40,192 bases of DNA from Bacteroidota bacterium (GCA_009936675.1 JAACDY010000172.1:1-40192); one strand, 5' to 3'; positions 1,809 through 24,035 are shown, numbered from the stretch's first letter. Translations and numbers: made by a program. Notes: generated from the letters alone by a model not told the origin.

Positions 1809-2570
1809 CTAGGAGATCATATTGAGGAATTGGATTTCTTTGTCGGTAAGGACACGCCACCGGCCTCTGGGGAGGTCTTTTTTGGTCAATCCGGCCAGTA
1901 GCACCCGATCCATAGACATTGCCTTTAGAGATCTTTGTTCCAATATTTTTTTAAGCAAACCCGGGGAGAGATTGGAGGCTTCGATACCAATTTCCTTTTT
2001 GGTGGCCCCTTGGATGTAGGCCGCAGATTTGACCTTGTACACCTTGTCCCGGATTCGAATGCCTTTGGTCAATGCCTCCAGGTCGGCAGCCTGAACATTT
2101 TGATCCAAAATCACCTGATAGAGGGTAGGAAAACGCGATTTGGGGTCGGCCAGTTTCTGGCGTAGTTTTTCGTCGTTGGTCATCAACAGTAGACCGGTAA
2201 CCGTTCGACCCATATCCCCCACTGGAGGTACTTTTTCGGAATGGGTACTGCGGATGAGCTCCTGCACAGATTTTTTGATCTGTCCGCCTTGGGTAGTCGC
2301 TACAAAACCCTTGGGTTTGTTCATCAAAAGATATACGGGAGGACTGTTGTTAACCTTTTGGTCGTCATAGCGCACTTGATCTCCTCTTTGCACCCGCAAT
2401 CCCATTTAGGTCACCACCTTACCGTTGACTTGCACCAAGCCCATAGCAATCAACCCATCGGCCTCACGGCGCGAACAAATGCCCGCATTGGAAAGGAATT
2501 TGTTTAAACGAATCCCCTCAGGGGAAGCAGTTCCACCCTTGGGGGCAGATTTTTTGAAATTTTCCGGCAC
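1809..2570 (-). pseudogene. RluB/RsuA-family pseudouridine synthase with S4 domain, interrupted by an in-frame TAA at 2406..2408
   Basis: The upstream piece is too short for the ORF track. From GTG at 2570 it reads MPENFKKSAPKGGTASPEGIRLNKFLSNAGICSRREADGLIAMGLVQVNGKVVT, a typical S4 domain. TAA follows, and the same frame continues MGLRVQRGDQVRYDD...YLLMNKPKGFV...TGLLLMTND...DRVLLAGLTKKDLPRGRWRVLT. The start codon is uncertain. Confidence 0.8.
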
Positions 2571-2577
2571 GACTTTC

Positions 2578-3459
2578 TTATTTGTACATGAAATAGATGC
2601 CCAATACCCCCATAAGGATGTGGATTTTGAACATATTGTGGATCCAAAGGTACGTTTTTTGCGTCGATCTCCACCAGAGCAACAGCACTACAATGCCCAA
2701 AAAGACCACACTCCAATAGTAGTAATAAACCATCAGCCCCAAACCACTTCCAATGAGCCGGTAGATGGGGAAATGGGTCAATAGTATCAAAACAGTCAGG
2801 ATCATTTTGGTGGTGCTGTGTCCAAAAACGATGGGCAAGGTTCGGTAGGAAGTCACCCAATCGCCTTTGTAGTTCTCCAAATCCTTGACGATGTCTCGGA
2901 TCAGGATCAAGAAATACAGATAGAGGGCGTGATCAACGATCAGCCATTGAAAGTTTTTAAAATAGAGGGTGATGGCAAAAAAAGGAAAAACCACCAAGGC
3001 CGAGGCGATGATGTTACTGATCCAAAACAAGCGTTTGAGACTACTGCTATAGCCCCAAATGGCGAAAGTAAAAAATCCAAAAAACAACAGTGCTTTAAAG
3101 GAGACAAAACCTGCCGCTATCAGTGCGGCTCCGTTGAGCAAAAAATAGAGCATCAACTGACTTCTCAGTGAAATGAGGTGCTCCAACATGAATTTTTGGG
3201 GGTGGTTGATGCGGTCTCTTTCGGCATCGTAAAAATTGTTGATGATGAATCCGGCCGCGGTAGAAAAGGCGGTGGCCAAAACCAACGCAAAGAGTTGAGG
3301 ATCGAGGATTACCGACCAAAAGGGTCTTTGGGGGGCCAAAATGTAGAGGGAACTGAGGTATTGGGCGGCGATCAGCAGGGCAATGTTGTAGCCCCTTACC
3401 ATGGGAAAAGGTCCAAAGAGTGAAAGCAGAAAAGGACGAGGGGACTTGGGTGGGGTCAT
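2578..3459 (-). CDS. UbiA-superfamily polyprenyltransferase (integral membrane)
   Basis: It is multi-TM and carries the first Asp-rich motif NNFYDAERDRINHP and a second acidic patch IRDIVKDLENYKGD. I place the start at the ATG at 3459 (MTPPKS...), 4 nt after the upstream gene's stop, rather than at the track's 3567, which overlaps that gene by ~100 nt. Confidence 0.85.
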   Translation of the reverse strand: MTPPKSPRPFLLSLFGPFPMVRGYNIALLIAAQYLSSLYILAPQRPFWSVILDPQLFALVLATAFSTAAGFIINNFYDAERDRINHPQKFMLEHLISLRSQLMLYFLLNGAALIAAGFVSFKALLFFGFFTFAIWGYSSSLKRLFWISNIIASALVVFPFFAITLYFKNFQWLIVDHALYLYFLILIRDIVKDLENYKGDWVTSYRTLPIVFGHSTTKMILTVLILLTHFPIYRLIGSGLGLMVYYYYWSVVFLGIVVLLLWWRSTQKTYLWIHNMFKIHILMGVLGIYFMYK

Positions 3460-3463
3460 GGGC

Positions 3464-4393
3464 TTAGAAGTAATGAACCACTTCGAGTCGGTAGCCTTGG
3501 AGTGCCTTTTGGGCCGCCTCCAGATCTTGGGTAAATCCCAGCACATATCCGCCCCCTCCCGAACCACAAAGCTTTAGGTAGTAGGCGTTTGTTTCCAGTC
3601 CCTTTTTCCACAGCTCGTGAAATTGGGCTGGGATCATGGGTTTAAAGTATTGCAAAACCAAAGCCGACAGTGATTTCATATTGCTCAAAAGGGATTTGAG
3701 GTTGCCTTTGAGGAAATTTTCCACACAGCGGTCGGTCATTTGGGTAAACTCGTCGCGCATCATCTTGCGAAAGCCTTCTTCTTTCATGTTTTCCAAAAAG
3801 AGGGAAACCATGGGTGCGGTGACACTGCTGCCCCCACTATCTATCAGAAAAACAGCCCCTTTGCCTTGGGCATTTTGTGCGGGGATTCCAGTGGTTTCGA
3901 TTTTGTCCTTGGAGTGAATCAGCAGGGGCAAACTCAAATAGCTATTAAGGGGATCCAAACCAGAGGACTGGCCGTGGAAATAGGATTCCATAGCAGCAAA
4001 AATACTTTTGAGACGGCTGAGTTTTTCTGGGGTCAGATCGGCTTGGGGGGAAATTTTGTCCACCGCATAGCGGTCGTAAAAGGCGGCGACCAATGCTCCA
4101 CTGCTGCCCACACCATAGCCCTGAGGGATACTGCTGTCAAAATAAAGGCGGCGATCCAAATCGGCCTGTAGGGCCTCCCAATCCAAACGCAGTAATTCTT
4201 CTGGTAAACCCTTGAGGTATTCGGTATAGTCACACAAACTTTGGTGAGAGGCAAGGGTGACCTCGGTTTCCTCCTCGGCCCACTTGAGGGTTCCCTTAAA
4301 AAAATTGTAGGGAATGGAAAGCCCTTTGGAGTCTTTGATGATACCATATTCTCCAAAGAGTAGAATTTTCGCAAAAAATAAGGGTTCTTTCAC
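3464..4393 (-). CDS. GHMP-family kinase, mevalonate kinase-like
   Basis: The N-terminus is ILLFGEYGII, GHMP motif II is PQGYGVGSSGALVAAF and motif III is KLCGSGGGGYVLGF. It lies directly downstream of the diphosphomevalonate decarboxylase gene. The start is GTG at 4393. Mevalonate versus phosphomevalonate specificity cannot be decided by eye. Confidence 0.8.
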   Translation of the reverse strand: MKEPLFFAKILLFGEYGIIKDSKGLSIPYNFFKGTLKWAEEETEVTLASHQSLCDYTEYLKGLPEELLRLDWEALQADLDRRLYFDSSIPQGYGVGSSGALVAAFYDRYAVDKISPQADLTPEKLSRLKSIFAAMESYFHGQSSGLDPLNSYLSLPLLIHSKDKIETTGIPAQNAQGKGAVFLIDSGGSSVTAPMVSLFLENMKEEGFRKMMRDEFTQMTDRCVENFLKGNLKSLLSNMKSLSALVLQYFKPMIPAQFHELWKKGLETNAYYLKLCGSGGGGYVLGFTQDLEAAQKALQGYRLEVVHYF

Positions 4394-4402
4394 ACTACTA
4401 AG

Positions 4403-5473
4403 CTAATTTTTTTTGGCACCATTTCCCACTTGATCCTCAATGTATTGTCCCTGTTGACAATGAACAAGCAACTCTTTTTGGATAAAATCCATAATGGGAT
4501 TGCGGTCTTGACGGGGATAGAGCAGGTGAACATTGGCTCCCGCGTCAAGGGTAAAGCACAAGGGCAAATCTGTTTGAGCTCTAAAATCCCAGACTTTTTG
4601 GAGTAGGGCCAAGGTATTGGGTTGCATCAATACAAAGCGTGGATTGGAGGTCATCATCATGGCGTGGAGGGTAAGGGCCTCGGCTTCAGTCAGGTCAATA
4701 AAACGCTCCAGATCGCCGGTAGTGAGTGCAGCTTTAATCTCTTCAAGGTGGCTATGGGCTTGTTCAAATCGTTGGGCAGCAAAAGGGTGGCCCTGCATCA
4801 GTCCATGACCCAGGGTGCTGCTCACCTTTTTTTGTCCTTTGTCCACAATCAATACCGTGTCTTGATAATCGTGGAAAATGGGGTGCCATTCCACAGCGGG
4901 CGCAATGGCATAGTGGTCGTTGCTTTGGGGGAAAGCCTTGCTTTGTCCCCATACCATTAGGGGTCCTGCAATACTTCTTGCGGCACTCCCCGACCCCAGT
5001 CGGGCCAAAAATGAGGCTTTTTGCAAAGCAGCCTCCTCCGTCCAGAGGGGGTGAAACTGTTTTTCGAAATCCACGATACATAGCGCCAATGCTGCCATGG
5101 CCGATGCAGAGGAAGCGATGCCACTGCTGTGGGGAAAGGAGTTTTGGCTGGAAATCGACAGCCGATGTCCTTCCAAAGCTGGGAAATAGGGGGTGATCCG
5201 CTCCAAAAACTGTTGAATCTTGGGGTGAAATGCGGGTTGTTTTTTTTGTTCAAACAAAAAGTCAAAGGCCGTTTCACCGGTCTGACGCGGGGAAAAGCTT
5301 ACCGCAGTAGTGGTCACACATTGGGAAAGGGTAAAACTGATGGAGGGGTTTTGGGGCAGTTGCTGGCCGTGTTTTCCCCAGTATTTGACCAAGGCAATGT
5401 TGCTGGGTGCCTGCCATTGGGTCTGATAATGTCCCTTTATGGGATCATTGAAAACAAATGATTTCTTACTCAT
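4403..5473 (-). CDS. mvaD: Diphosphomevalonate decarboxylase
   Basis: Hallmark motifs are APSNIALVKYWGK and SSGIASSASAMAALA, plus LGSGSAARS. Length is 356 aa. Confidence 0.9.
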   Translation of the reverse strand: MSKKSFVFNDPIKGHYQTQWQAPSNIALVKYWGKHGQQLPQNPSISFTLSQCVTTTAVSFSPRQTGETAFDFLFEQKKQPAFHPKIQQFLERITPYFPALEGHRLSISSQNSFPHSSGIASSASAMAALALCIVDFEKQFHPLWTEEAALQKASFLARLGSGSAARSIAGPLMVWGQSKAFPQSNDHYAIAPAVEWHPIFHDYQDTVLIVDKGQKKVSSTLGHGLMQGHPFAAQRFEQAHSHLEEIKAALTTGDLERFIDLTEAEALTLHAMMMTSNPRFVLMQPNTLALLQKVWDFRAQTDLPLCFTLDAGANVHLLYPRQDRNPIMDFIQKELLVHCQQGQYIEDQVGNGAKKN

Positions 5474-5542
5474 GGATCACAAAGATAATTGATGGCCGGG
5501 GTGGAAAAAAATATAGCCGAATGAAAATGATTAGCTTTGAAG

Positions 5543-6025
5543 ATGAAAAGGAAGTTACTTTTTTCCATTGTCGGCGGTGTAATCGTCTCTATGTTGGTGG
5601 GCTTTTTGGCGGGTCAGGCCACACAAAGCTCCGTCAATACGTGGTATGCAAGCTTGGAAAAACCTTTTTTTAACCCCCCGAATTGGATATTTGCACCCGT
5701 TTGGACAGTGCTCTATCTGCTGATGGGGATTGCCGTGGGGCGGATATGGAATTATGGTATCCACCACCGCTGGGTCAAAAGTGCAGTTTACCACTTTGGA
5801 TTCCAACTCTTGGTCAATGGACTTTGGTCCTTAGTTTTTTTCGGACTGAGGAATCCCATCTGGGCTATGGTGGTGATTCTAGTCCTGCTGTTTTTGATTG
5901 TCAGAACCATACAACAGTTCAGAATCGTTGATCTTCTTGCCGCACGACTGCTTTATCCCTATTTGATTTGGGTTGTTTTTGCCACTTACCTCAATGCAGG
6001 GATTGTTTTACTCAATTTTTTGTAA
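5543..6025 (+). CDS. tspO: TspO/MBR family tryptophan-rich sensory protein
   Basis: WYASLEKPFFNPPNWIFAPVWTVLYLLMGIA is present, with five TM helices and many Trp. ATG at 5543 is preferred over the track's TTG at 5537. Confidence 0.9.
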   Translation: MKRKLLFSIVGGVIVSMLVGFLAGQATQSSVNTWYASLEKPFFNPPNWIFAPVWTVLYLLMGIAVGRIWNYGIHHRWVKSAVYHFGFQLLVNGLWSLVFFGLRNPIWAMVVILVLLFLIVRTIQQFRIVDLLAARLLYPYLIWVVFATYLNAGIVLLNFL

Positions 6026-6055
6026 ATTGGTATTGCAACCAAATCTATAATTATC

Positions 6056-6620: not shown

Positions 6621-6935
6621 TTATTCAGGAGCTAATTCAACTTTTAGTCCCTCTAGTTTTTTATCCATAGGAATTTGACCCCCAAGGCGGCTGTTTTCTT
6701 TAACGTGGAAAGCCTCGGACAGCATGGCTTCTTCATCTGGACTTTTCTCATTCAGGGGATGATCGCTCAACACATAGCACTGGCAAGAAGCACACATGGC
6801 CATTCCACCACAAGTCCCCTCCACGGGCAATTCGTAGGCTTTACACACCTCCATTAGGTTCATTGCCATGTCGGTGGGGGCATCGAGTTGATGGGATACC
6901 CCCTCCCGGTCAATTACTGTGATTTTGATTTCCAT
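6621..6935 (-). CDS. [2Fe-2S] ferredoxin, adrenodoxin/putidaredoxin type
   Basis: It has the C-x5-C-x2-C cluster motif (GTCGGMAMCASCQC) and a C-terminal NSRLGGQI block. Its ATG abuts the FNR stop codon (TAAATG). Confidence 0.85.
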   Translation of the reverse strand: MEIKITVIDREGVSHQLDAPTDMAMNLMEVCKAYELPVEGTCGGMAMCASCQCYVLSDHPLNEKSPDEEAMLSEAFHVKENSRLGGQIPMDKKLEGLKVELAPE

Positions 6936-10476: not shown

Positions 10477-11544
10477 TTAATCTTGGGTAGATCTTACCTC
10501 TTTGGTGACCCGCTGGAGGGAAAAAGAAAATTCGGACCCTGCCCCGGGGGTACTTTCGACCAAAAGTTTTTCCTGATGGGCTTCGATAATGTGCTTGACG
10601 ATGGACAAGCCCAATCCCGAACCTCCTGCTTTCCGATTTCCAGATTTGTCCACCCGATAAAAACGCTCGAAAAGTCGGGGCAAGTGCTCCTCTGCTATCC
10701 CTTCCCCATTGTCAGAAATCTTGACCAATATCTTTTCTTCGTTCAGTTCTTCCAAGCTCACTTCAGTTTTTCCGTTTTTTACGCCATACTTCAGTGAATT
10801 GACAATCAAATTGGTCAATACCTGCTGTATCCTTTCTTCATCGGCAAAAACCTGATAAGACTGGGTGTACTCCCGATCAAAACCGATTGAAATTTTGTTT
10901 TTAATGGCTTGCATCTCGAGCAAATCAAAAACGTTTTCGATCAACTCATTGATGTCAAAAAAAGTCCTGTCGATGGTTTTAATACCAGATTCAAATTGGG
11001 TGATCAAGTCCAAATCTTTGACCACATAAATCAAGCGTTACACACCCTTAGCCGTTCTTTTGAGGTATTTTTCTCTGACATTTTTGTCTCCAATGGCTCC
11101 CTCCAACAAAGTGAGTACATAGCCCTGTATGGTAAACAAAGGGGTTTTTAGTTCATGGGATATATTTCCGATAAATTCCTTTCGGTAGTCTTCCTTTTCT
11201 TTGAGGGTCTCAATTTCTAGTTTTTTGTCGTCGGCAAACTTTTGAACACTTTCCCGAAGAGCCTCCATATCAGATTGAACAATTTGTTGGCTCATTGATA
11301 CGCCCGAGGGAGAAAGATCGTTGTAAATGCCCTTGATTTTATTGAGAATAAACCTTTCAATTCGATAATTGATTAGGAACACTGAAAAAATAAAGAATAA
11401 CAAAAGCATAATTGCCACCAACAGCAGAATTTCGGTATCGGGTTTTAGGTCGATGACTAAAAATAAAAGAGTCATCATCAAGACCAACAATCCAACCAAA
11501 ATGGCCGACAAACGAAATGCAACTCTAAAATTCTTAATTCTCAA
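10477..11544 (-). pseudogene. Two-component sensor histidine kinase (HisKA + HATPase_c), interrupted by an in-frame TAA at 11038..11040
   Basis: The 5' ORF has two TM helices and the H-box ISHELKTPLFTIQGY, and ends ...KRTAKGV-TAA. The same frame continues RLIYVVKDLDLITQ... with an N-box (LTNLIVNSLKY), G1 (DNGEGI) and G2 (GSGLGLS). The total of 1068 nt is divisible by 3. Confidence 0.85.
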
Positions 11545-11552: not shown

Positions 11553-12245
11553 TTATTTGGAGGGTTGAACAAATTTATAACCCACGCCTTTGACAGTCTT
11601 GAAATATTTGTCCCCCACTTTTTCTCTGAGTTTTCGGATGTGAACATCTATGGTTCTATCCCCCACTACTACTTCACTCCCCCAAACGACTTCCATGATT
11701 TTTTCTCTTTTGACCACCTTATCTGGTTTGGAAGCCAAAAGGTAAAGGAGTTCAAATTCTTTTCGGGGTAAGGAGAAGGTTTTCCCTTTGTGGGTGACTT
11801 CATACTGTTCTTTTTCAATGATGAGTTTGCCCAGTTGGATTTTATCTTGATTTTCTTCTTCTTTTTTGAGGCGACGTAAAAGAGCTTTGACTTTGGAAAC
11901 AATGATTTTGGGCTTGATGGGCTTGGTAACATAGTCGTCTGCGCCAGCATCAAAAGCCGCTACGTAGGAATAATCTTCCCCCCTAGCGGTGAGAAACATG
12001 ATGATTGTGTCGTTAAAAGTAGGATCGCTACGCAATTCTTCACAGGCTTCAATACCATCCATTTCAGGCATCATCACATCCATGATGATTAAATGAGGGG
12101 TGTTTTTTTGAGCCTTCTGTAGGGCCTCTTATCCATTGGAGGCTGTCTTTACGTTGTATCCCTCTTGTTCTAGGTTGTATCTTATGATCTCAATAACATC
12201 GGGTTCATCGTCAACCAACAATATTTTAATATCCTTTTTTTTCAT
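11553..12245 (-). pseudogene. OmpR/PhoB-type response regulator, interrupted by an in-frame TAA at 12129..12131
   Basis: From ATG 12245 it reads MKKKDIKILLVDDEPDVIEIIRYNLEQEGYNVKTASNG-TAA-EALQKAQKNTPHLIIMDVMMPEMDG. The receiver Asp and YVTKP are present, then a winged-helix output domain (LPRKEFELLYLL...TVKGVGYKF). The total of 693 nt is in frame. Confidence 0.85.
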
Positions 12246-12716: not shown

Positions 12717-13703
12717 ATGATCATCGAAAATTTGGAAAATTTTTGGGAAATCGACAGCCAAGCTGCCTTTGAAGCTTTGGCCGTAAAAACCTTTTATTTT
12801 CAATACGAAAACAACAAGGTTTACCGATCTTTTTGTGATCTGATCAACTGTCACCCTTCTGAAGTTGCTGCAGTAAAAGACATTCCCTATCTGCCCATTT
12901 CTTTTTTCAAATCAAAAAGGATATGCTCCTTTGCGTCAGAAAATATGGATTTTTTTAGTTCCAGTACCACCTCCGGCGGAAGTCCTTCAAAGCATTATTA
13001 CCGTCAACTGGAAGATTATCAAATGAGTTTCCGCAAGGGATTTGAACATTTTTTTGGAGCCATTGAAGATTTTAGAGTACTGGCTCTTTTGCCCTCTTAT
13101 ATGGAAAGATCGGGTTCCTCTCTCATTTATATGGCCAATGATATGATCCGCAATAGTGCTCAGCCAGAAAGCGGTTTTTACCTCAATCAATGGGAATCCC
13201 TGAAAAAAACCATCGACCAAGGGGAAGAAAAAGGTCAAAAAACACTGTTGTTGGGGGTATCTTTCGCCCTACTGGATTTGGTAGAGCAGTATTCATTTAA
13301 CCTTCAGCATACCTGGATTATGGAAACCGGAGGAATGAAAGGCAGGAGAAAAGAATTGACCCGCGAGGCCTTGCACGACCAACTGAAAAAGGGTTTTGGA
13401 GTTTCCAAAATTTACTCGGAGTACGGGATGACCGAATTACTCTCTCAAGCCTATTCCAAAGGGGAAGGGGTTTTTGAATGTCCCCCCTGGATGCGAGTCT
13501 CTGCCCGGGAGAATCAAGATCCTTTCCATCTGCTCCCTTGGGGACAAAGCGGGGGGTTGAATGTCATTGATCTGGCCAACCGCGACAGCTGCGCTTTTAT
13601 TGCAACAGAAGACCTCGGCAGGATTCATTCCAACTCACGCTTTGAAGTCTTGGGACGTTTGGATGCAACAGAAATACGGGGGTGCAACTTAATGGTGGTC
13701 TAG
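12717..13703 (+). CDS. LuxE/PaaK-like acyl-protein synthetase / adenylate-forming family protein
   Basis: It matches the conserved Bacteroidota pattern: [51 protein letters not shown]. Length is 328 aa. Its end converges on and overlaps tyrS by 4 nt. Confidence 0.65.
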
Positions 13704-14995
13704 ACGACCTTTACAATAAAATAATTTTTTTTACCCCTTTGTAGTAAAATGTATTGGTCATCGATCAAATCACTAGATCCAATGGCATAACTCTCATTTA
13801 CCTTGGTTTTGTTTACAGAAATGGAGTTTTCACTCAGTGCCCTACGGGCCTCTCCATTGGATTTTAAAAAGGAGGTGTGGGAAGCCAACAAGGCGATCAT
13901 GTCAATGCCATTGTTCAAATCAGAACGAGAAATCTCCGACTGGGGAACCCCTTCAAAGACCTCCAAAAAGGTTTGGCGATCAAGGTTTCTTAAATCCTCA
14001 GCCGTGGATCGACCGAATAAAATTTGACTGGCTTGAATGGCTTTTTGTAAATCTTCCTCAGAATGAACCATACGGGTGACCTCCTCGGCAATGGTTTTTT
14101 GCAGTAACCTCATATGAGGGTTTTCTTGGTGTTGCACGATCAAACCCTCTATGGTGACCTTGTTCAAAAGGGTGAAAATTTTAATGTAGTTTTCAGCATC
14201 CTCGTCAGAAGCGTTCAACCAATACTGATAAAACTTGTAGGGAGAGGTTCGGGTCTTGTCCAACCAAACATTACCCCCTTCTGTTTTCCCAAATTTTGTT
14301 CCATCGGCCTTGGTTATTAATGGACAGGTGATGGCATAGGATTTTCCGCCCAACTTGCGTCGGATCAATTCTGTTCCCGTGGTGATATTCCCCCACTGAT
14401 CACTGCCGCCCATTTGCAACTTGCAGTTCATGTTTTGATAGAGGTGTAAAAAGTCATAGCCCTGCAGCAATTGGTAGGTAAATTCGGTAAAAGACATGCC
14501 CACTTTGGCATCGCTGCCAAGGCGTTTTTTTACGGAGTCCTTGGCCATCATATAGTTGACGGTCAAATGCTTACCAATATCACGAGAAAAATCGATCAAA
14601 CTGAAGTCTTTGGTCCAATCATAGTTGTTGACCAATTGAGCCGCTTTGGGGTTGGCGGGATCAAAATCAAGAAATTTTTGCAGTTGGTTTCTAATGCCAT
14701 CCACGTTTTTCTGTAATGCCTCTGCATCCAAAAGATTTCTTTCGTCGGACTTTCCAGAAGGATCGCCAATCATTCCTGTGGCTCCACCCACTAGAGCAAT
14801 AGGCCTATGACCCGCCCTTTGAAAATGGATCAAAATCATGATTTGCACCAAGCTACCAATGTGAAGGGAATCGGCCGTTGGATCAAAACCAATATAACCC
14901 GATGTGATGTTTTGGTTCAAATGATCCTCTGTTTCGGGCATAATGTCGTGCAACATGCCTCGCCAACGAAGTTCTTCTACAAAATTTTTCTGCAT
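13700..14995 (-). CDS. tyrS: Tyrosine--tRNA ligase
   Basis: The HIGH motif reads DSLHIGSLV and the KMSKS-equivalent reads KFGKT. A C-terminal S4-like domain is present. Length is 431 aa. Confidence 0.95.
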
Positions 14996-15072
14996 TGCTT
15001 TGATTTGAAAGCAAAGATAGATTTATGCCCTAAAACAAAAAATTATTCTTTAAAAAGCATTAGTTTTAGTTT

Positions 15073-16044
15073 ATGATTTTATTGACCGGAGCAACAGGAT
15101 TTATCGGTTCTCATTTGATGTGTCATTTGGCACAAAAAGACATTTTTCCCGTGGCCATGTTCCGACATGAGTCAAATAAAAAAAGGGTTTGGAAACAATT
15201 TGAATCTCAATTTGCCGATGCCCAAAAACGCTTTGATAAAATCACTTGGAGAAAAGCGGACTTTAGAGACCTGCCCAGTTTGGATGCTGCCTTTGAGGGA
15301 ATCAGTCATGTGTACCATTGTGCTGGCTATATTTCCTTGGCACAACGCGATGCCAAAAAACTACTGGAGATCAATGAAAAAGGGTCTGCCTACTTGGTCA
15401 ATCTGTGTTTGTCCCATTCGGTCAAAAAATTGGTTTATGTCAGCTCCATAGCTGCCCTAGGCAACGACCCCTCTATATCAGTCATCGACGAAAACACCCC
15501 TTGGGACAACAATATCGACAAAAACCCTTATGCCTATTCCAAATACGGAGGGGAAATGGAAGTGTGGCGGGCCATGCAAGAGGGGCTGAATGCAGTCATC
15601 GTCAATCCGGGTATCGTACTGGGAAAAGACAGTCCCATTGAAACATTACTCCTACGACACAAAAAAGGCTTGAGGTGGTGTACCACCGGAAATAATGCTT
15701 TTGTGAATATCCAAGATGTCATCACCCTTATGGATAAACTGATGGATTCCAAAATCGAAGGAGAACGCTTTATTTTGGTAGCCGAAAATTGGTCTGGAAA
15801 AGTTATGGTAGAAACACTCCTCAAATCCGGAGATTTTCGTCCGAGGGTGTTTTTTATTCCCAAAGGTTTTTTGTACTTCTTGTGGGGATTGGAACATCTG
15901 ATGCAACTGCTGGGCATCAGAAGACGTTTCTTGACCCGCGCCATTATTTCTGGTCAATACGAGCAAAAAACCATTGACGGAAGCAAAATAAAATCCTTTG
16001 TAGATTTTGAGTACTCCCCCATCACAAAGTTGATTTTCGACTGA
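15073..16044 (+). CDS. NAD-dependent epimerase/dehydratase family (extended SDR) protein
   Basis: The N-terminal Rossmann motif is LLTGATGFIGSHL and the catalytic YxxxK reads YAYSKYGGE. Length is 323 aa. Confidence 0.8.
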   Translation: MILLTGATGFIGSHLMCHLAQKDIFPVAMFRHESNKKRVWKQFESQFADAQKRFDKITWRKADFRDLPSLDAAFEGISHVYHCAGYISLAQRDAKKLLEINEKGSAYLVNLCLSHSVKKLVYVSSIAALGNDPSISVIDENTPWDNNIDKNPYAYSKYGGEMEVWRAMQEGLNAVIVNPGIVLGKDSPIETLLLRHKKGLRWCTTGNNAFVNIQDVITLMDKLMDSKIEGERFILVAENWSGKVMVETLLKSGDFRPRVFFIPKGFLYFLWGLEHLMQLLGIRRRFLTRAIISGQYEQKTIDGSKIKSFVDFEYSPITKLIFD

Positions 16045-16067
16045 GGGATTGAAACAACAGTAAAACG

Positions 16068-16427
16068 CTACTCCTCTTTGATGCGCATTGATTCATTAAT
16101 GCTGTCATTAAGTCTGTCGAGCTCCAATTGAATTTTTTTAAAAATAGGGACGTATTTTTTGGGGTTTTTGGCATAATAGGATTGACTGGAGGCCAATTGT
16201 GCGCTATCGATACCGTGTTTTTCATAGAGATATTCGGCCACCAAAAGATCTTCTTTATCCTGAATATAGGAAGCTTCGCGTTTGATGTTTTTCATCAAAA
16301 TAATGTCCGTCATAACCTCGCTCATTTGATCGGGAGGGATCAAATCATTGGGCGGCTTGTTGTCCCCCGTCGCTGTACAGGAAGAAACTACAAGGGAGAG
16401 AAGGAAAATATTTTTTTTCATGTTCAT
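16068..16427 (-). CDS. DUF4296-like lipoprotein
   Basis: A lipoprotein signal (LLSLVVSSC) is followed by LIPPDQMSEVMTDIILMKN. Its position just downstream of dihydroorotase is typical for Flavobacteriia. An ATGA overlap links it to the upstream gene. Confidence 0.65.
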   Translation of the reverse strand: MNMKKNIFLLSLVVSSCTATGDNKPPNDLIPPDQMSEVMTDIILMKNIKREASYIQDKEDLLVAEYLYEKHGIDSAQLASSQSYYAKNPKKYVPIFKKIQLELDRLNDSINESMRIKEE

Positions 16428-17761
16428 CGATCAAAAGTAAGTTTTTTACCCAATGCACTTTCGATAATTTCTCCATCATCGTACACCAGATTCCCATTGA
16501 CAAAGGTCTTGATGATGGTGGCTCCAAAAGTAGTTCCCTCAAAAGGAGACCATCCGCACTGATAGCGCAAATCTTCTTTGACAACTGTATGTTTTTTATT
16601 GAGATCGACCAAAACCAGATCGGCAAAATAACCTTCACGAAGAAAACCACGGTTTTGAATTTTAAACAGTATTGCTGGATTGTGACAGGCTTTTTCGACC
16701 AGCTTTTCCAGCGAAGTTTTGCCCTGTTGTACGGCGGTCAATAGGGCAACATAGGCGTGTTGCACCAAAGGCCCCCCCGACGGAGCTTTGGTGTAGGGGT
16801 TTTGCTTTTCTTCAAGGGTATGGGGGGCATGGTCTGTGGCCAATACATCAATTTTGTCCTCGTTGAGGGCTTTCCAAAGAGCCTCTCGGTCACTGGCTTT
16901 TTTAACCGCAGGATTCCATTTGATCAAGGTTCCCTTTTGAGCATAATCTTCTTCCGAAAACCAAAGGTGATGCACACAGACCTCGGCAGTTATTTTCTTT
17001 TCTGCCAATGGCTTTTCGTTGGAAAATAATTCTGTTTCAATGGCCGTAGACAAATGAAAAACATGCAAGCGAGCTCCAGTGGCTTTGGCTAGGTGAATGG
17101 CACGTGAAGAAGAACGATAACAAGCGGCCTCACTTCTGATTTCTGGGTGCTTTTCAATAGGGATATCGTCTCCGTATTGAGCGATGTGTTCCGCTAAGTT
17201 TTTTCGGATGGTGTTTTCATCCTCGCAATGAACGGCAATGGGGATGTCGGTACTGGAAAAAATCTTTTGCAATACCTGTTCATCGTCTACCAACATATTG
17301 CCAGTAGAAGACCCCCAAAACAATTTGAGTCCTGCCGCTTGGGTGGTATCAAAAGTCTTGATTTCTTCCAGATTGTCATTGGTTCCACCAAAGAGAAAAC
17401 CATAATTGGCGATGGAGGTTTTTGCTGCCCTGTCCAATTTGTCCTCTAAGGCGTTTTGGGTAGTGGTTTGGGGATTGGTATTGGGCATTTCTATAAAGGA
17501 GGTAATCCCCCCTGCCACCGCTGCACGAGACTCTGAGGCAATGGTAGCCTTGTGCGTCAGACCAGGCTCCCTAAAGTGGACTTGGTCATCGATCCAACCT
17601 GGCAACAAATGAAGACCCGTAGCATCAATGAGTTCCTCACTCCCAGTAGGGGCAATGTGATGGCTGATTTTCGCGATTTTTTCCCCTCGAATCAAGAGGT
17701 CTTTTTGGCAAAGTTCACCTTCATTGACCAATTGGGCATTTTGTATTAATATTTCCCTCAT
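16424..17761 (-). CDS. pyrC: Dihydroorotase / cyclic amidohydrolase family protein
   Basis: Amidohydrolase-fold motifs are present: PGWIDDQVHFREPGLTHK, AVHCED, VFHLST, ATDHAPH. Length is 445 aa. Confidence 0.85.
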   Translation of the reverse strand: MREILIQNAQLVNEGELCQKDLLIRGEKIAKISHHIAPTGSEELIDATGLHLLPGWIDDQVHFREPGLTHKATIASESRAAVAGGITSFIEMPNTNPQTTTQNALEDKLDRAAKTSIANYGFLFGGTNDNLEEIKTFDTTQAAGLKLFWGSSTGNMLVDDEQVLQKIFSSTDIPIAVHCEDENTIRKNLAEHIAQYGDDIPIEKHPEIRSEAACYRSSSRAIHLAKATGARLHVFHLSTAIETELFSNEKPLAEKKITAEVCVHHLWFSEEDYAQKGTLIKWNPAVKKASDREALWKALNEDKIDVLATDHAPHTLEEKQNPYTKAPSGGPLVQHAYVALLTAVQQGKTSLEKLVEKACHNPAILFKIQNRGFLREGYFADLVLVDLNKKHTVVKEDLRYQCGWSPFEGTTFGATIIKTFVNGNLVYDDGEIIESALGKKLTFDR

Positions 17762-17766: not shown

Positions 17767-18480
17767 TTAGTTAAATAGACTTTTGATCCTCAAAATCAAA
17801 ACGGCAGACAGCGCCTCCCAAATAATCCTTCCATTCATTTTGGAAACCCCCAGCACTCTGTTGGTGAAAATAATGGGATGTTCCTTGTATTTGTACCCTT
17901 TCTTCCAAATTTTAAATTTCATCTCGATCTGAAAGGCATAGCCTACAAATTTTATTTTATAAAAATCCAACTGCTCCAAAACTTCTCTTCTATATCCGAC
18001 AAAACCTGCAGTGGGGTCTTTGATGGGCATAAAGGTAATCCACCTGACATACAAAGAAGCAAAATAGGAGAGTAAAATCCTACTCAAAGGCCAGTTGACC
18101 ACATTGATGCCTTTGACATAGCGTGATCCAATGACCAAATCATAATCAGAGTTGAGATAGGCGAGCATTGGAGACAATTCTTTGGGATCGTGAGACAAAT
18201 CGGCATCCATTTCAAAAATAAAGTCGTATTGCTTTTCTAAAGCCCATTTGAAACCATGAATATAGGCCTTTCCCAAGCCCTCTTTAAGGGCGCGTTGCTC
18301 CAAAAATAGCCGATCGGAGTGGGTTTTCATCAGTTCCAAAACCAAATCGGCAGTACCGTCCGGGGAGGAATCGTCCACCACCAGAATGTCAAAGGCTTTG
18401 TCCTTGAGGGTCTTTTCAACAACGGTTTTGATGTTTTCAACCTCATTGTAGGTGGGAATGATAACTAAGGCTTTGTCCAT
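17767..18480 (-). CDS. GT2 polyprenol-monophosphate mannose/glycosyl synthase
   Basis: Motifs are VIIPTYNE, VVDDSSPDGT and EMDADLSHDP. Length is 237 aa. Confidence 0.85.
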   Translation of the reverse strand: MDKALVIIPTYNEVENIKTVVEKTLKDKAFDILVVDDSSPDGTADLVLELMKTHSDRLFLEQRALKEGLGKAYIHGFKWALEKQYDFIFEMDADLSHDPKELSPMLAYLNSDYDLVIGSRYVKGINVVNWPLSRILLSYFASLYVRWITFMPIKDPTAGFVGYRREVLEQLDFYKIKFVGYAFQIEMKFKIWKKGYKYKEHPIIFTNRVLGVSKMNGRIIWEALSAVLILRIKSLFN

Positions 18481-18550: not shown

Positions 18551-19168
18551 ATGTTTCAATGGACTGAAAAAATTCATCTACAACAAGACTGGATTACTGT
18601 TTTGATCATTTTGATCTTCACACTCAGTGTTTACCTATTTAACAGAAACCCCCATCAATTCAAACTTCTGGTGTGTTTTTGGAGATCCAAAAGTTATTTC
18701 AACATCTATGACAAGGAGAAATATGCCAATCCCTTACATATGTTCAACTTGATCTTGATATTCATAACATTGATTACCGTCTCGCTTTTGAGTTATTTTT
18801 TCTACGAAAAAATCTTATTTTCCCTATTGGGAGGGATCTCATTTCTATCATTTCTTTTGTTCATCTCGGCAGTGGTTGTTCTTCGTTATGGATTACTCAA
18901 ACTCATTTTTCAGCGCTCAAATCATTTGGAACTCTTTCTACAAACCGTTTTCAGAGGCATCAGTTTTTATGCAATGATCAGCCTCTACGCTCTATTCCTT
19001 TTTTCGGTCTATCACTTCGGTTTTCCTGACAATTCGAACTTTCTTTTCTTGATAATCATATTGATTCTCTTATTTGTATTTGTAACACAACTCACCGTTT
19101 ACTTAAGAATCATTAGGTTCCATCAAATCCGCATAGTATATTTAATTTTGTATCTTTGTGCTTTCTAA
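18551..19168 (+). CDS. DUF4271-like multi-pass membrane protein
   Basis: It has about 6 TM helices. Its position immediately upstream of the hemD-like gene is the arrangement I associate with DUF4271 in Flavobacteriia. Confidence 0.6.
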   Translation: MFQWTEKIHLQQDWITVLIILIFTLSVYLFNRNPHQFKLLVCFWRSKSYFNIYDKEKYANPLHMFNLILIFITLITVSLLSYFFYEKILFSLLGGISFLSFLLFISAVVVLRYGLLKLIFQRSNHLELFLQTVFRGISFYAMISLYALFLFSVYHFGFPDNSNFLFLIIILILLFVFVTQLTVYLRIIRFHQIRIVYLILYLCAF

Positions 19169-19231
19169 ATCGCGCCCTGGCTTTGGCTCTACAAGACGAT
19201 TTATTAGACAAAAGCAAAATTTAGAAGAAAT

Positions 19232-19948
19232 ATGAAAGTGAAGACTATTTTGGTTTCTCAGCCTGAACCTGCCAGTAAGAAGTCTCCCTACTCTAGATTA
19301 CAAGAAAAGCATAAACTGAAAATTGATTTCCGTCCCTTTATTCACGTAGAAGGTCTGTCGGCAAAGGAAGTGAGGTTGCAAAAAATCAATTTCTCTGATT
19401 TTGACAATATCATTCTAACCAGTAGAAACGCCGTAGATCATTTCTTTAGAATCACAGAAGAAATGCGTTATAAAGTACCTGACTCCACCAAATATTTTTG
19501 CCAGTCCGAGGCAGTGGCCTATTACCTTCAAAAATATGTGGTTTACAGAAAACGCAAAATATATGTAGGTGAGAAAAGCATCACCGATTTAGAAGCTGTA
19601 TTTAAAAAATTTGAAAAAGAAAAGTACTTACTCCCTTCATCGGATGTTCTCAAACCGAGTATTCCAGACTGTCTAAACAAAATGGGGATTGACTGGACTC
19701 GTGCACCTTTATATAAAACTGTGGTGAGTGATCTTTCCGATTTGAGAGATGTTTACTACGATGTTTTGGTATTTTTTAGTCCTTCGGGAATCGAATCTCT
19801 TTTTAAGAATTTCCCTGATTTTGAACAAAACAACACCCGAATTGCAGCCTATGGTAATGCCACCGTCCTTGCTGCCGACAAAGCTAAGTTGAGAATCGAT
19901 ATCAAAGCTCCCACCCCCGACACTCCCTCTATGCCCATGGCCATATAA
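19232..19948 (+). CDS. hemD: Uroporphyrinogen-III synthase (HemD-like)
   Basis: It reads MKVKTILVSQPEP...IDFRPFIHVEG...ILTSRNAVDHFFRI...FFSPSGIESLF. The ORF stops at TAA 19946-19948, but the frame continues KYISSNGK to TAG 19973-19975 (see findings). Confidence 0.8.
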   Translation: MKVKTILVSQPEPASKKSPYSRLQEKHKLKIDFRPFIHVEGLSAKEVRLQKINFSDFDNIILTSRNAVDHFFRITEEMRYKVPDSTKYFCQSEAVAYYLQKYVVYRKRKIYVGEKSITDLEAVFKKFEKEKYLLPSSDVLKPSIPDCLNKMGIDWTRAPLYKTVVSDLSDLRDVYYDVLVFFSPSGIESLFKNFPDFEQNNTRIAAYGNATVLAADKAKLRIDIKAPTPDTPSMPMAI

Positions 19949-19985
19949 AAATACATCAGTAGCAACGGTAAATAGATAAACTTCC

Positions 19986-20363
19986 CTAATTCGTTTTATC
20001 CTTAAAAGCTTTCCAAAGCAATACTGTCCAACCCAATATCAGTAAACTCCCTCCTATGGGGGTAACTGGACCCATCCACGTTAAGTCAAAAGAAGTCAAT
20101 TTCCCCAGACAGAGTGCAAAAATACTGAAGGAAAAAAGGACAACACCCCAAAAAAACAGTCTGAATATTACAGGATTTCTGGCCAAAGGAATTTGTGAAA
20201 AAATCAATAGTGCCAATCCGTGATACATCATGTATCGAATTCCGGTTTGAAAAGATTCTAAAACTTCTGGCGAAAAATAGGCTTTGAGGGCATGACTTGC
20301 AAAAGCACCCAACACTACTGCTAACAGGGCAAAAGCCCCTCCCGATAAAATATATTTTCTCAT
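19986..20363 (-). CDS. DUF423 family membrane protein
   Basis: GAFALLAVVLGAFASHALK is present, with 4 TM helices. Length is 125 aa. Confidence 0.75.
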   Translation of the reverse strand: MRKYILSGGAFALLAVVLGAFASHALKAYFSPEVLESFQTGIRYMMYHGLALLIFSQIPLARNPVIFRLFFWGVVLFSFSIFALCLGKLTSFDLTWMGPVTPIGGSLLILGWTVLLWKAFKDKTN

Positions 20364-20470
20364 AAGAGTTAATGTAAAATTAATACTATAAATTCCAATC
20401 GAATAATTTATTAATTTTATTAATACAAATATGAGTTTTAATTCGATTTATAAAGGTTAAAAGATAGATT

Positions 20471-20941
20471 TTGAAGACAAAAAACGAGCGAGTAGTCATT
20501 GACGGCTTGGATAAAATCATTCTCAGAGCATTGATGAGGGATGCGAGAAAGTCAATCAATGAAATTTCAAAAACTGCAGGAATATCGGGGGCAGCCGTTC
20601 ATCAACGGCTCAAAAAACTGGAGAATTCAGGACTCATATCGGGATCTCAAGTTGTGATTAATCCCAAAATACTGGGCTACAAAACAATGGCCTTTATCGG
20701 TATTTACTTGGACAAAGCAATGCGGAATCCAGAGGCTGTAAAACAGCTCGAAAAAATTCCCGAAGTGATCGAATGTCACTACACTACTGGCCATTGGAGT
20801 GTTTTAATCAAAATACTTTGTGAGGACAATGAACATTTGATGACCCTATTGAACCACGAAATTCAAACCATAGATGGGGTGTCCAGAACAGAGACCTTTA
20901 TTTCACTCAACCAGCAGATCAAAAGGCAAATTCAATTGTAA
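20471..20941 (+). CDS. Lrp/AsnC family transcriptional regulator
   Basis: The HTH is LDKIILRALMRDARKSINEISKTAGISGAAVHQRLKKLENSGLI, followed by a RAM domain. Only TTG at 20471 is available as a start that keeps the HTH. The upstream region is AT-rich and repeat-like (TTATTAATTTTATTAATA). Confidence 0.85.
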   Translation: MKTKNERVVIDGLDKIILRALMRDARKSINEISKTAGISGAAVHQRLKKLENSGLISGSQVVINPKILGYKTMAFIGIYLDKAMRNPEAVKQLEKIPEVIECHYTTGHWSVLIKILCEDNEHLMTLLNHEIQTIDGVSRTETFISLNQQIKRQIQL

Positions 20942-20949
20942 AAAATTCT

Positions 20950-21219
20950 TCAATTATTATTGCGGTGGATTAGAGTAAATACGATGATGAACATTTGTAG
21001 TATGCCAGAAACTACATTGGCCGTAATTACAGCAATACTTTCGATCAAAACTCCATAGCAAAACCAAATACAAATTCCGATGAACATGATCACATACATG
21101 GAAACAGAAACACCACTGGCGTCGCGTTTTTTCCATATTTTGAGAAACTGAGGCACAAAGGCAATGGTGGTAAAAGTGGCGGCAATCAGCCCGATAATTT
21201 CAATATGCAAATCACTCAT
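20950..21219 (-). CDS. SemiSWEET / PQ-loop family transporter
   Basis: This 89-aa protein has 3 TM helices and the PQ motif FVPQFLKIWKKRDASGVS. Its ATG overlaps the leuS stop (ATGA). Confidence 0.8.
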   Translation of the reverse strand: MSDLHIEIIGLIAATFTTIAFVPQFLKIWKKRDASGVSVSMYVIMFIGICIWFCYGVLIESIAVITANVVSGILQMFIIVFTLIHRNNN

Positions 21220-24035
21220 CAGATGACAATATTTATGATTTTTCCAGGAACTACTATGATTTTTTTGGGCGTAGCTCCATCAATTTGATCCAATGTACGT
21301 TGTTCCTTCATTACCGCCTCCTTGATTTCCTCTACCCCCATGTCTAAGGAAAACTTGAGGGTAAAACGCATTTTTCCATTGAAGGAAACTGGGTATTCTT
21401 TGGCAGTCTCCTCAACCTTAGTGGGATCGAAAACAGGAAAAGGCTCAAATTCGATGCTCTGGCTATGCCCCAACTTTTGCCATAACTCTTCACAAAAATG
21501 AGGAGCAAATGGGGAAAGCAATACCAATAGAGGTTCCAAAACTGCTTTATTTGAACATTTTAAGGCCGTCAATTCATTGATACAGATCATAAAACTACTG
21601 ACACAGGTATTGAAAGATAGGCGTCCAATGTCGTCAGTTATTTTTTTGATGGTCTGATGCAGTATTTTTAAGCTTTCTGGACTGGGAGCTTGTTCACTTA
21701 CCAACCACTGATCTTGTTGGTAAAACAACCTCCAGAATTTTTTGAGGAAGTTGTGCACCCCCGAAATTCCAGCAGTATTCCAGGGTTTGTCCTGCTCAAT
21801 GGGGCCTAAAAACATTTCATACATCCTGAGTGTATCGGCACCATAGGTGTCACAAATTTCATCGGGATTGACTACATTGTATTTTGACTTGGACATTTGT
21901 TCAACCTCTCTACCCACAATATATTTTTCGTTTTCAAGCACGAAGTCTGCTTTTTGAAAATCTTTTTGCCAATTTCTAACCGCCTCCACGTCCAACTCGT
22001 CTTGGGTATTGACCAAGCTTACATCCACGTGTATGGGTTCTACTTCTTGATTGCCAATCAAGCCTTTGGAAAGAAAAGTTTGGGTGCCTTTTTTGCGGTA
22101 CATAAAAGCAGAATTGCCAAGGATCATTCCCTGATTCACGAGCTTTTTAGCATATTCCCCCGTGTGAGCATATCCCAAGTCAAAAAGTACTTTTTGCCAA
22201 AATCTAGAGTATAAAAGATGACCCGTAGCATGCTCACTACCTCCCATATAAAAATCTACTTTACTCCAGTAGTCCAAAGCTCTGGAACCTACCCATTCCT
22301 TTTGATTTTGGGCATCCATATAACGGTTGAAATACCAAGAACTCCCCGCCCATCCAGGCATGGTATTGAGTTCCAATGGGAAGACCGATTGATGGTCGAT
22401 TCTATCTGCGGAAACCAATTCCTCATTGATCTCATCCCATGCCCATATTTTGGCATTCCCCAAGGGAGGTTTTCCATCTTCGGTAGGGAGGTATTTTTCT
22501 ACTTCGGGCAATTCCAAAGGCAAGTGTTGCTCTGGTAAAGGTACGGGGACATCTCCCTTAAAGTAAATAGGAATAGGCTCTCCCCAATATCTTTGGCGAC
22601 TGAAAACAGCATCTCTAAGTCTATAATTTACCGAACCTTTGCCACATTGTTTGGATTCCAACTCGGCAATGACTTTTTCCAGTGCTGCCTTGAAATCCAA
22701 ACCGTTTAAAAAATCAGAATGGGTCAATTTTACATTCCCTTTATCGACAAAGGCACCTTCGGACACATCAACCCCCTCGAAAATATTGATAATCGGTAAA
22801 TTGAAATAGGTGGCAAAATCAAAATCTCTTTGGTCTCCAGAAGGCACTGCCATGACTGCACCAGTTCCATATCCTGCCAAAACATACTCCCCAATCCAAA
22901 TGGGAATTGGTGCTCCAGTAAAAGGATGAAGAGCATGGGCTCCTGTAAATACACCACTAATCGATTTGACATCGGCTTGGCGTTCGCGATCGGATTTCTG
23001 AGCGACTTTAGCGGTATAATCCGCAACAGCTTTTTGCTGTTCTGGACGGGTAATTTTTGTGACCAACTCATGCTCTGGGGCAAGGGTCATATAGGTGACT
23101 CCAAATACAGTATCGGGCCGGGTAGTAAAAACCTCCAATTTCTCAGGATGATTTTCAATTTCAAAATAAATGCTGGCCCCTACCGATTTTCCAATCCAAT
23201 TCCTTTGCATTTCTTTGAGGGAATCCGACCAGTCCAATTCGTCCAACCCCAACAAAAGTCTGTTGGCATAGGCTCCAATGCGCATACTCCACTGACGCAT
23301 TTTCTTTTTGGTTACAGGATGACCTCCACGCTCTGAAACTCCATTTACAATTTCGTCATTGGCCAAAACCGTTCCCAAAGCAGGACACCAATTGACTTGT
23401 GTTTCGGATAAATAGGTGAGTCGGTAGTTGAGTAAAACTTTTTGTTGCTGTTCATGGTCAAAGGCTTTCCAATCTTGGGCATTAAAAACAGGAGTATCTT
23501 TGTCACAATGCGCTTTTACTTTTATATTTCCTTCCTTTTCAAAGCTGAGGATCAATTATGAAATAGGAATTGCCTTATCGGCCTCGAGATCATAATAGGA
23601 ATCAAATAACTTCAAGAATATCCACTGTGTCCATCGATAGTAATCCGGTTCTGAAGTCCTCACCTCTCGATCCCAATCGAAGGAAAATCCCATTCGGTCG
23701 AGCTGTTGACGGTATCTATTGATGTTGGCAATAGTTGTTTTGGCGGGATGCTGTCCAGTCTGAATGGCGTATTGCTCTGCTGGTAGTCCAAAAGAATCAT
23801 AGCCTTGTGGATGCAAAACATTAAAACCCAAGTGCCTTTTGAATCGCGCGACAATATCACTGGCAATATACCCTAAGGGATGCCCCACATGCAGTCCTGC
23901 CCCAGAGGGATAGGGAAACATATCCAATACATAATACTTGGGTTTATCGCTATGGTTGTCTGCCTTAAAGGTTTTGTGGGTCGACCAAAAGTCTTGCCAC
24001 TTTTTTTCAATTTGCAGAAAATCGTAATTCATCAA
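21219..24035 (-). pseudogene. leuS: Leucine--tRNA ligase, reading frame interrupted by one in-frame TAA at 23556..23558 (formally a pseudogene; may be an artefact or still functional)
   Basis: The 5' ORF (159 aa) carries HIGH ([16 protein letters not shown]) and ends ...[12 protein letters not shown]. The same frame continues LILSFEKEGN... through the CP1 editing domain, a KMSKS loop reading QMSKSKYN, and the anticodon-binding and C-terminal domains. The total of 2817 nt (939 codons) is the normal bacterial LeuRS length. Confidence 0.9.

Follow-up and report, generated by a model that had tools for sequence, protein, structure and literature searches.

Six in-frame TAA codons in conserved genes of a marine Flavobacteriaceae contig most likely belong to a noisy database record

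The contig JAACDY010000172.1 (GCA_009936675.1) from marine Flavobacteriaceae carries an in-frame TAA inside six genes, and the question is whether these codons are read through by the bacterium or arise from the record itself. The window, that is, the whole stretch of DNA analysed here, is the entire 40,192-bp NCBI contig, so the stops stand in the public record. A biological origin would make this the first UAA-tolerant or UAA-recoding bacterium.

The first-pass annotation proposed that four pairs of adjacent reading frames are single genes split by a TAA alone, with hemD as a weaker fifth candidate. The four pairs, all on the minus strand, were confirmed at the positions given below and hemD turned out to be a real case; the count nevertheless has to be raised to six, as the stop in the DUF4271 gene had been overlooked. 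The sites, with the codon found in conspecific contigs, are the following:

2406-2408, minus strand: TAA at codon 55 of an rluB-like pseudouridine synthase gene (1809-2570); conspecific codon CAA (Gln)
11038-11040, minus strand: TAA at codon 169 of a HisKA/HATPase_c histidine kinase gene (10477-11544); conspecific codon GAA (Glu)
12129-12131, minus strand: TAA at codon 39 of an OmpR-type response regulator gene (11553-12245); conspecific codon AAA (Lys)
19166-19168, plus strand: TAA at codon 206 of a DUF4271 gene (18551-19207); conspecific codon AAA (Lys)
19946-19948, plus strand: TAA at codon 239 of hemD (HEM4) (19232-19975); conspecific codon GAA (Glu)
23556-23558, minus strand: TAA at codon 159 of leuS (21219-24032); conspecific codon CAA (Gln)

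Every one of the six stops is a single first-position change from a Gln, Glu or Lys codon (on the coding strand C>T, G>T, A>T, A>T, G>T and C>T in the order above). The earlier statement that frameshifts and TAG or TGA interruptions are absent held in the set of 47 genes with all private changes annotated, with which a 44-gene set agrees: neither contains an internal TAG or TGA.

The comparison set consisted of 17 independent conspecific metagenome sources with 99.3–100% identity to the window, obtained from ENA, JGI, Logan and the NCBI MAG GCA_018699515.1. All sources that reach the sites have sense codons there and intact genes. In the rluB-like gene, position 2408 is G in both conspecific contigs that reach the site (L106 and L108, the only two), and the L106 product is an intact 253-aa S4/PseudoU_synth_2 protein. 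The histidine kinase codon is GAA in 10 of 10 sources, and of 79 wider relatives 66 carry Glu in the same column and 12 carry Asp. For the response regulator AAA and an intact 230-aa protein were found in 11 of 11 sources, for DUF4271 AAA in 8 of 8 (a product of 218 aa, versus 205 aa in the window), for hemD GAA in 8 of 8, and for leuS CAA in 7 of 7. The hemD frame runs for 8 further codons past its TAA and then meets TAG; in every relative the protein has 247 aa and aligns across the stop. The truncated 238-aa hemD product is already present in NCBI nr. The leuS column is variable among the LeuRS homologues listed (E, K, Q, T, A, D, S), and 120 of 120 of these listed matches are free of interruption. 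An in-frame TAA was likewise found neither in the 17 conspecific sources nor in two genus-level contigs (L081 and L082), whose genes are intact as well.

Over 39,382 bp, 47 sites private to the window and 5 others separate it from the ENA scaffold SONG20-1_SAMN08290287_265, with no indels, and Logan contigs of the run SRR6441340 give the same pattern; to judge by these alignments, both evidently represent the same strain as the window. The comparable span is:

1-39382, no strand assigned: region comparable with conspecifics, with 47 window-private substitutions and 0 indels

All 47 private changes are missing from every other source (2–11 sources per site). Since the six sites are occupied by ordinary codons for Gln, Glu or Lys in the same strain, noise of the record is the most likely source of the stops.

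The alignment of close relatives that the first-pass annotation had suggested for establishing the ancestral codons thus gave CAA, GAA, AAA, AAA, GAA and CAA. This does not agree with its view that the rluB-like and leuS sites were Glu codons altered by GAA>TAA: the same strain has CAA (Gln) at both, and the regulator has AAA (Lys). The misassignment arose because Glu does occur at several of these positions in genus-level relatives. With the ancestral codons in hand, G>T accounts for only two of the six stops, those of the histidine kinase and hemD.

Another claim, that TAA has not been reassigned here, was sustained. TAA ends 23 of 44 tabulated genes and 23 of 47 in the fuller set; these terminal codons align with the stops of genus-level relatives, where they face TAA, TAG or TGA, and in the nadA/nadB and pyrH/frr gene pairs a TAA alone stands between the members. 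By these alignments TAA is a normal terminator. As regards reassignment, no in-frame TAA is shared by the lineage outside this record, the ancestral residues are not one consistent amino acid (Gln, Glu, Lys, Lys, Glu, Gln), and TAA is not depleted as a terminator.

The stops have to be considered together with the other private substitutions. Given 47 of these, 0.95 in-frame TAA-creating changes are expected and 6 were observed (simulation P ~3e-4), so the TAA count is above chance. The window-private changes comprise 13 synonymous, 26 missense and 6 nonsense ones, lie at codon positions 1, 2 and 3 in the proportion 21/11/13, and include 17 transitions versus 30 transversions (Ts/Tv 0.57) in a nearly flat spectrum. 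By contrast, when private changes are pooled over the other contigs, 80 are synonymous, 64 missense and 0 nonsense with Ts/Tv of 1.2, and the two sets differ both in the synonymous versus non-synonymous division (Fisher P = 0.002) and in nonsense changes (P = 1.4e-4). The dN/dS of the window-private changes is ~1, and they carry no signature of purifying selection.

The same absence of selection is seen at individual residues, two of which are located as follows:

6680-6681, minus strand: two adjacent private substitutions in an adrenodoxin-type [2Fe-2S] ferredoxin gene (6621-6935), changing Cys86 to Gly (SRLGCQ to SRLGGQ)
21899, minus strand: private AAA>CAA change in the leuS KMSKS motif, K712Q, giving QMSKS

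In the putidaredoxin/adrenodoxin family the Cys at this place is the fourth cluster ligand. In alignment to PDB 2mjd the SRLGGQI of the window faces SRLGCQI. All 120 listed LeuRS homologues have the KMSKS Lys, and its replacement is the sole departure of the window among near-invariant LeuRS columns. The losses of Cys86 and of this Lys are ones that a living cell could hardly bear; W156R and L149W are further radical missense changes at invariant residues in the same record.

The private changes are also clustered and biased in context. Seven neighbour gaps are ≤35 bp versus 1.9 expected (P = 0.002), and the hemD stop itself is flanked by further private changes at 19934 and 19969. The altered base lies directly 5' of AA, on either strand, in 21 of 47 window-private changes versus 22 of 157 private changes of other contigs (P = 2e-5). 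Eleven TAA trinucleotides were made by private changes where 3 are expected, and 5 of these 11 fall outside the reading frame or on the non-coding strand. The in-frame share is 6 of the 11 versus 2.4 expected (P = 0.017), and 10 of the 21 NAA-context changes versus ~4.5 expected. This mild in-frame excess remains and counts against the noise reading.

Taken together, it is quite probable that the six TAAs belong to a set of ~47 base errors private to one deposited contig and that neither recoding nor suppression is involved. The changes are private to the record and missing from same-strain assemblies, free of purifying selection and of non-biological spectrum, dependent on DNA context regardless of frame and strand apart from the in-frame excess, and clustered on the scale of reads; their technical origin is what we infer from these properties. 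Substitution errors would have entered during sequencing, amplification or consensus building, through a process limited to substitutions, clustered over tens of bases and favouring the base directly 5' of AA on either strand. Rewriting the N of NAA would turn CAA, GAA and AAA into TAA, and under such a process TAA would be far commoner than TAG or TGA, given the great abundance of CAA, GAA and AAA among the codons of these genes. The underlying strain would then have CAA, GAA or AAA at the six sites, full-length proteins and the standard code. An artefact was the explanation placed first by the first-pass annotation, and of those it offered this one is the best supported.

The likeness to consensus, base-call or amplification errors of draft MAGs and SAGs, which end up annotated as internal stops in genes, lies in changes that are private, unselected (dN/dS ~1, Ts/Tv ~0.5), clustered and context-dependent. 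The difference is that here only substitutions occur, with 0 indels, and that the preference is for the base 5' of AA and for short A/T runs, unlike the common Illumina GGC/8-oxoG, 454 and nanopore profiles. It also counts against the artefact reading that the spectrum fits no familiar error profile, being neither that of 8-oxoG nor that of deamination and lacking indels of the 454 or nanopore type.

Among the alternatives, the substitutions may have been real in the sequenced template (for instance one cell that was damaged or dead, a single molecule that was amplified, or a clone), fixed before amplification or in its course and never exposed to selection, which we regard as rather unlikely. 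In that case the record would faithfully reproduce a template that was not viable. It would suit a backbone that matches the strain from an independent sample assembly with 47 substitutions on top, as well as dN/dS of ~1 with lethal-looking changes included, and the bias toward bases 5' of AA and A/T runs could be the signature of a lesion or a polymerase, not of base-calling. Usual amplification or single-cell artefact rates, however, lie one to two orders of magnitude below the ~1.2e-3 private changes per base of this record, and clusters within ≤35 bp suit read-level errors better than independent lesions. As for recoding, the practical outcome would be the same as that of an artefact.

The suppressor strain offered by the first-pass annotation, in which an ochre suppressor tRNA or leaky termination would make UAA tolerable, is very improbable; TAG and TGA nonsense mutations would be purged in such a strain. 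Its attraction is that six of six premature stops are TAA (chance ~0.46^6 under uniform substitution), that somewhat more of the TAA-creating changes than expected are in frame, and that Gln, Glu and Lys are the residues inserted by classical E. coli ochre suppressors. But the TAAs occur in no other contig of the species or the same strain, and they replace three ancestral amino acids, including the kinase Glu, in whose column 78 of 79 homologues carry E or D. A tolerant strain would still purge other deleterious changes, yet C86G, K712Q, W156R and L149W persist at dN/dS of ~1, and such radical missense changes are beyond the rescue of any suppressor. The enrichment of TAA-creating changes is just as strong outside the reading frame and on the non-coding strand, and 23 of 47 genes close with TAA, several adjoining the next gene. 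No tRNA gene was found in the window, in the conspecific flanks or in five related loci. E. coli ochre (UAA) suppressor strains, which insert Gln, Lys, Tyr or Glu, resemble the window in having UAA only, from Gln, Glu and Lys codons, and differ from it in that here the stops are unshared, missense changes are equally unselected, three ancestral amino acids are involved and a suppressor tRNA gene is unseen in the window and flanks.

The stop reassignments known in bacteria are all of UGA, to Trp or Gly (PMC8629427); they share with the window an in-frame stop in conserved genes of an uncultured bacterium, whereas here another codon is concerned, the TAA terminator is not depleted and clade-wide conservation is lacking. 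In Blastocrithidia nonstop UAA has a dual meaning, Glu and stop, and some ciliates have ambiguous stop codes (PMC12153298; bioRxiv 10.1101/2022.04.12.488043). The likeness consists in in-frame UAA in conserved genes alongside UAA as terminator, with Glu in relatives at some sites. These codes, however, belong to eukaryotes, extend over whole lineages and involve in-frame stops by the thousand together with dedicated changes in tRNA and eRF1, in contrast to six sites of one record replacing Q, E and K. A related reading, in which the cell or lineage is truly mutated and survives by partial UAA readthrough, the NAA bias being the footprint of an undescribed mutational process, seems to us very improbable; it would make this marine Flavobacteriaceae strain an ochre suppressor or one in which TAA has a dual meaning.

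An even smaller chance is given to an oxidative 8-oxoG (G>T/C>A) library artefact, or a mutator of the mutY/mutM type, as the source of GAA>TAA, a signature that the earlier annotation had put forward. Two of the six stops are GAA>TAA and genus-level relatives have Glu at several sites, but of the 47 private changes only 6 are C>A or G>T, invariant columns hold no G>T missense change, and against genus relatives the spectrum of the lineage has no C>A excess (8.8% versus 5.4% and 10.7% in two relatives). Oxidative damage as the sole cause is refuted by the polarised same-strain substitutions.

No more credit can be given to ordinary pseudogene decay under relaxed selection, the earlier idea of a mutator or relaxed-selection lineage included: several genes are indeed interrupted in one 40-kb stretch, but frameshifts and deletions are absent (0 indels over 39 kb), TAA is the single stop type, essential single-copy leuS is affected, and in place of lineage-shared, transition-rich changes the window shows private, transversion-rich substitutions of near-flat spectrum in read-scale clusters over an intact-strain backbone, absent from two same-strain assemblies.

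In summary, the evidence most likely points to a noisy database record and not to a real biological feature. In the flagged NCBI contig leuS, hemD, the two-component genes, the rluB-like gene and DUF4271 will appear in annotation as pseudogenes or truncated proteins. With CAA, GAA and AAA so common, an NAA-biased substitution process can look like codon-specific recoding. Comparison at the genus level can mislead, while the true ancestral codons came from same-strain contigs. In screens for alternative genetic codes, in-frame stops should be polarised against conspecific assemblies before they are interpreted.

An in-frame TAA interrupts six genes of the window, each at a position where the conspecific contigs have a sense codon:

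2406-2408, minus strand: rluB-like gene (conspecific CAA, Gln)
11038-11040, minus strand: HisKA/HATPase_c histidine kinase (conspecific GAA, Glu)
12129-12131, minus strand: OmpR-type response regulator (conspecific AAA, Lys)
19166-19168, plus strand: DUF4271 gene at 18551-19207 (conspecific AAA, Lys206)
19946-19948: hemD (conspecific GAA, Glu)
23556-23558, minus strand: leuS (conspecific CAA, Gln)

The four sites claimed in the first-pass annotation (rluB-like gene, histidine kinase, response regulator and leuS) were confirmed by translation across the stops, and hemD, listed there as a weaker fifth candidate, proved to be genuine: the frame runs for 8 codons past the TAA and then reaches TAG, and the relatives' protein, 247 aa long in all of them, aligns through the stop. 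The sixth premature TAA, absent from that list, shortens the membrane protein encoded by the DUF4271 gene, which has 218 aa in the conspecific contigs, to 205 aa. Internal TAG or TGA codons, which had been said to be missing, were indeed not found in the 47-gene set used to annotate the private changes (bases at which the window differs from all conspecific contigs), and a 44-gene tabulation agrees. Comparison of the sequence around the stops revealed no common motif, such as a methylation site, apart from the AA after T.

The earlier statement that TAA is not reassigned holds, as this codon ends 23 of 44 tabulated genes (23 of 47 in the fuller set). The terminal TAA codons align with TAA, TAG or TGA in genus-level relatives, and the internal ones with AAA, GAA or AAG. 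The neighbours nadA/nadB and pyrH/frr share a frame and are parted by TAA alone, yet they are distinct genes; these and the further candidate read-through pairs (TspO/next gene, TrxR-like/ferredoxin, ftsX/DUF3098, pyrH/frr/MMPL and the exbD pair) were examined and are all separate genes. The glycosyltransferase gene at 17767-18480 (minus strand) stops at a TAA where genus-level relatives read CAA and end two codons later; since this stop is common to all conspecific contigs, it can be considered a natural species-level difference outside the noise.

The LeuRS homologues, which reach 89% identity, belong to uncultured marine Flavobacteriaceae; none of them is interrupted, and two genus-level contigs (L081 and L082, ~82-84% nucleotide identity) show perfect synteny with the window and every gene intact. 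Conspecific contigs were found through window proteins that occur identically elsewhere. They represent 17 independent sources (ENA, JGI, Logan and the NCBI MAG GCA_018699515.1), are 99.3-100% identical to the window and span its positions 1-39382, no position being covered by fewer than 2 sources. No conspecific was found among GTDB representative genomes (best response-regulator match 85% identical) or by a protein-guided scan of JGI metagenome_contigs (best response-regulator match 92%), and the exact flanks of the leuS site had no match in the latter database. Yet look-up of exact proteins showed the species to be frequent in assemblies from ENA, Logan and JGI. All six genes are intact in all conspecific sources: the rluB-like protein has 253 aa, the kinase 355 aa, the regulator 230 aa, the DUF4271 protein 218 aa, HemD 247 aa and LeuRS 937 aa.

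At 47 positions the window differs from every other source, and six of these changes make the TAA codons. Outside these sites it shows 5 differences in 39,382 bp from the ENA scaffold SONG20-1_SAMN08290287_265 (L086/L098/L106) and 0-1 differences from the Logan contigs of run SRR6441340 (L090/L107), while other strains of the species are 0.12-0.5% different. Given this near-identity, the window represents the SONG20/SRR6441340 strain with 47 extra substitutions, which two independent assemblies of that strain lack; judged by sequence, the record could come from the very sample or strain of SONG20-1_SAMN08290287 / SRR6441340, for which a literature search gave no paper. An exact-sequence look-up found the window proteins, among them the truncated 238-aa hemD product, at NCBI on one contig of 40,192 bp, the full length of the window, so the stops belong to the public record and were not added later, and a planted or synthetic edit was rejected on this ground. 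Other public assemblies of the population have their own, indel-type errors, as in the JGI contig L100 (3300046167, Ga0494228_01352), where at locus 13021-16757 the MMPL gene is split into 458 + 290 aa vs 794 aa and the class-II aaRS gene (PF00152, tRNA-synt_2) is shortened to 434 aa vs 477 aa, and 9 gap openings separate the contig from the window.

All 47 private changes are substitutions, with zero indels against the same-strain scaffold, and their rate is 1.2e-3 per base compared with 0.5-4e-4 in most other contigs. They comprise 17 transitions and 30 transversions and fall on codon positions 21/11/13. Two lie between genes; of the rest, 13 are synonymous, 26 missense and 6 nonsense. When the private changes found in the other contigs are pooled, 80 are synonymous, 64 missense and none nonsense (Fisher test, P = 0.002 for synonymous/non-synonymous and P = 1.4e-4 for nonsense). 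They are also clustered, with 7 neighbour gaps of at most 35 bp vs 1.9 expected (P = 0.002), as at the hemD stop, which belongs to the group 19934/19946/19969, and at the DUF4271 stop with the pair 19138/19166. Some remove residues at which variation is not expected. Two adjacent substitutions at 6680-6681 lie in the ferredoxin gene (6621-6935, minus strand), and by one of them Cys86 of this adrenodoxin-type ferredoxin is replaced by Gly, SRLGCQ becoming SRLGGQ in the alignment to PDB 2mjd; in this family the Cys is established as the fourth [2Fe-2S] ligand. In leuS (minus strand) the AAA>CAA change at 21899 gives K712Q and turns KMSKS into QMSKS at a column that is Lys in 120/120 homologues and 7/7 conspecific contigs, so that this gene carries a second inactivating-looking change besides its TAA.

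The number of TAA stops exceeds chance: if 47 substitutions fell uniformly, 2.1 stops would be expected, 0.95 of them TAA, and six TAA were observed (P ~ 3e-4). This excess goes back to a DNA-context bias. The changed base lies directly 5' of AA, on either strand, in 21/47 cases vs ~10 expected (P ~ 2e-4) and vs 22/157 for the private changes of other contigs (P = 2e-5), and 18/47 changes fall in A/T runs of at least 3 bases (9.6 expected). Since 13% of the window codons are CAA, GAA or AAA, a replacement of N in NAA will frequently produce an ochre codon and seldom an amber or opal one. The TAA trinucleotide is made by 11 private changes, 5 of which fall on the non-coding strand or in another frame, which indicates a process with no need of a reading frame; the in-frame excess left (6/11 vs 2.4 expected, P = 0.017) may be due in part to the choice of the window for its stops. 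AAA>CAA accounts for six more private changes (for example 21899, 22649, 33151 and 37186), AAA>AGA occurs at 10493, 22282 and 38433, and AAT>CAT at 30077 and 36785, among others; Lys AAA codons received 9/45 private coding changes, being 5.6% of codons, and many of the changes break up A/T runs of 3-6 bases. Comparison of the 47 changes with named platform error profiles gave no match.

According to these data the six TAAs are most likely a record-specific sequence error, which would arise in sequencing, amplification or consensus building, and the testable defining features of an assembly-level error are present. That the changes are real in one unselected template, for example from a damaged cell or from amplification of one molecule, is unlikely.

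Ochre suppression or a dual-meaning TAA is very unlikely, and a truly UAA-tolerant strain is hardly credible. To our knowledge a dual-meaning UAA (Glu and stop) is confined to eukaryotes, such as Blastocrithidia, whereas in the window TAA replaces Gln, Glu and Lys. Neither any relative nor the same strain has these TAAs, the residues replaced are of three kinds, missense changes that look lethal stand alongside the stops, and the TAA-making bias is present out of frame too. There are no tRNA genes of any kind in the window or in five related loci, so these loci are silent on a suppressor. Established bacterial reassignments concern UGA in every case (PMC8629427), and according to a 2026 preprint an inferred sense meaning of TAA/TAG needs the support of phylogeny and a cognate tRNA (10.64898/2026.04.02.715157). 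None of the testable defining features of reassignment or suppression was found.

The G>T explanation had assumed Glu (GAA) at the rluB-like and leuS sites, but the conspecific codon is CAA (Gln) at both; GAA>TAA stands for the histidine kinase and hemD only, the other four codons being CAA or AAA. From codon usage alone (P = 0.02 for 4/4 changes from GAA) a damage or mutator model looked marginally possible, the substitution spectrum of the lineage, taken against relatives of the genus, gave no information since ~1,800 natural differences hide the signal, and private-substitution counts at invariant columns were normal; polarising against the conspecific contigs finally rejected the model. 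Oxidation to 8-oxoG cannot be the sole cause, since C>A and G>T together make up only 6/47 private changes. Generic decay of genes is at odds with the lack of indels and with TAA as the single type of internal stop.

The observation of recurrent internal TAA codons is confirmed and widened to six sites, and its most likely interpretation is an artefact. Were the changes real in a single template, the consequence would be the same as for a sequence error, namely no recoding.
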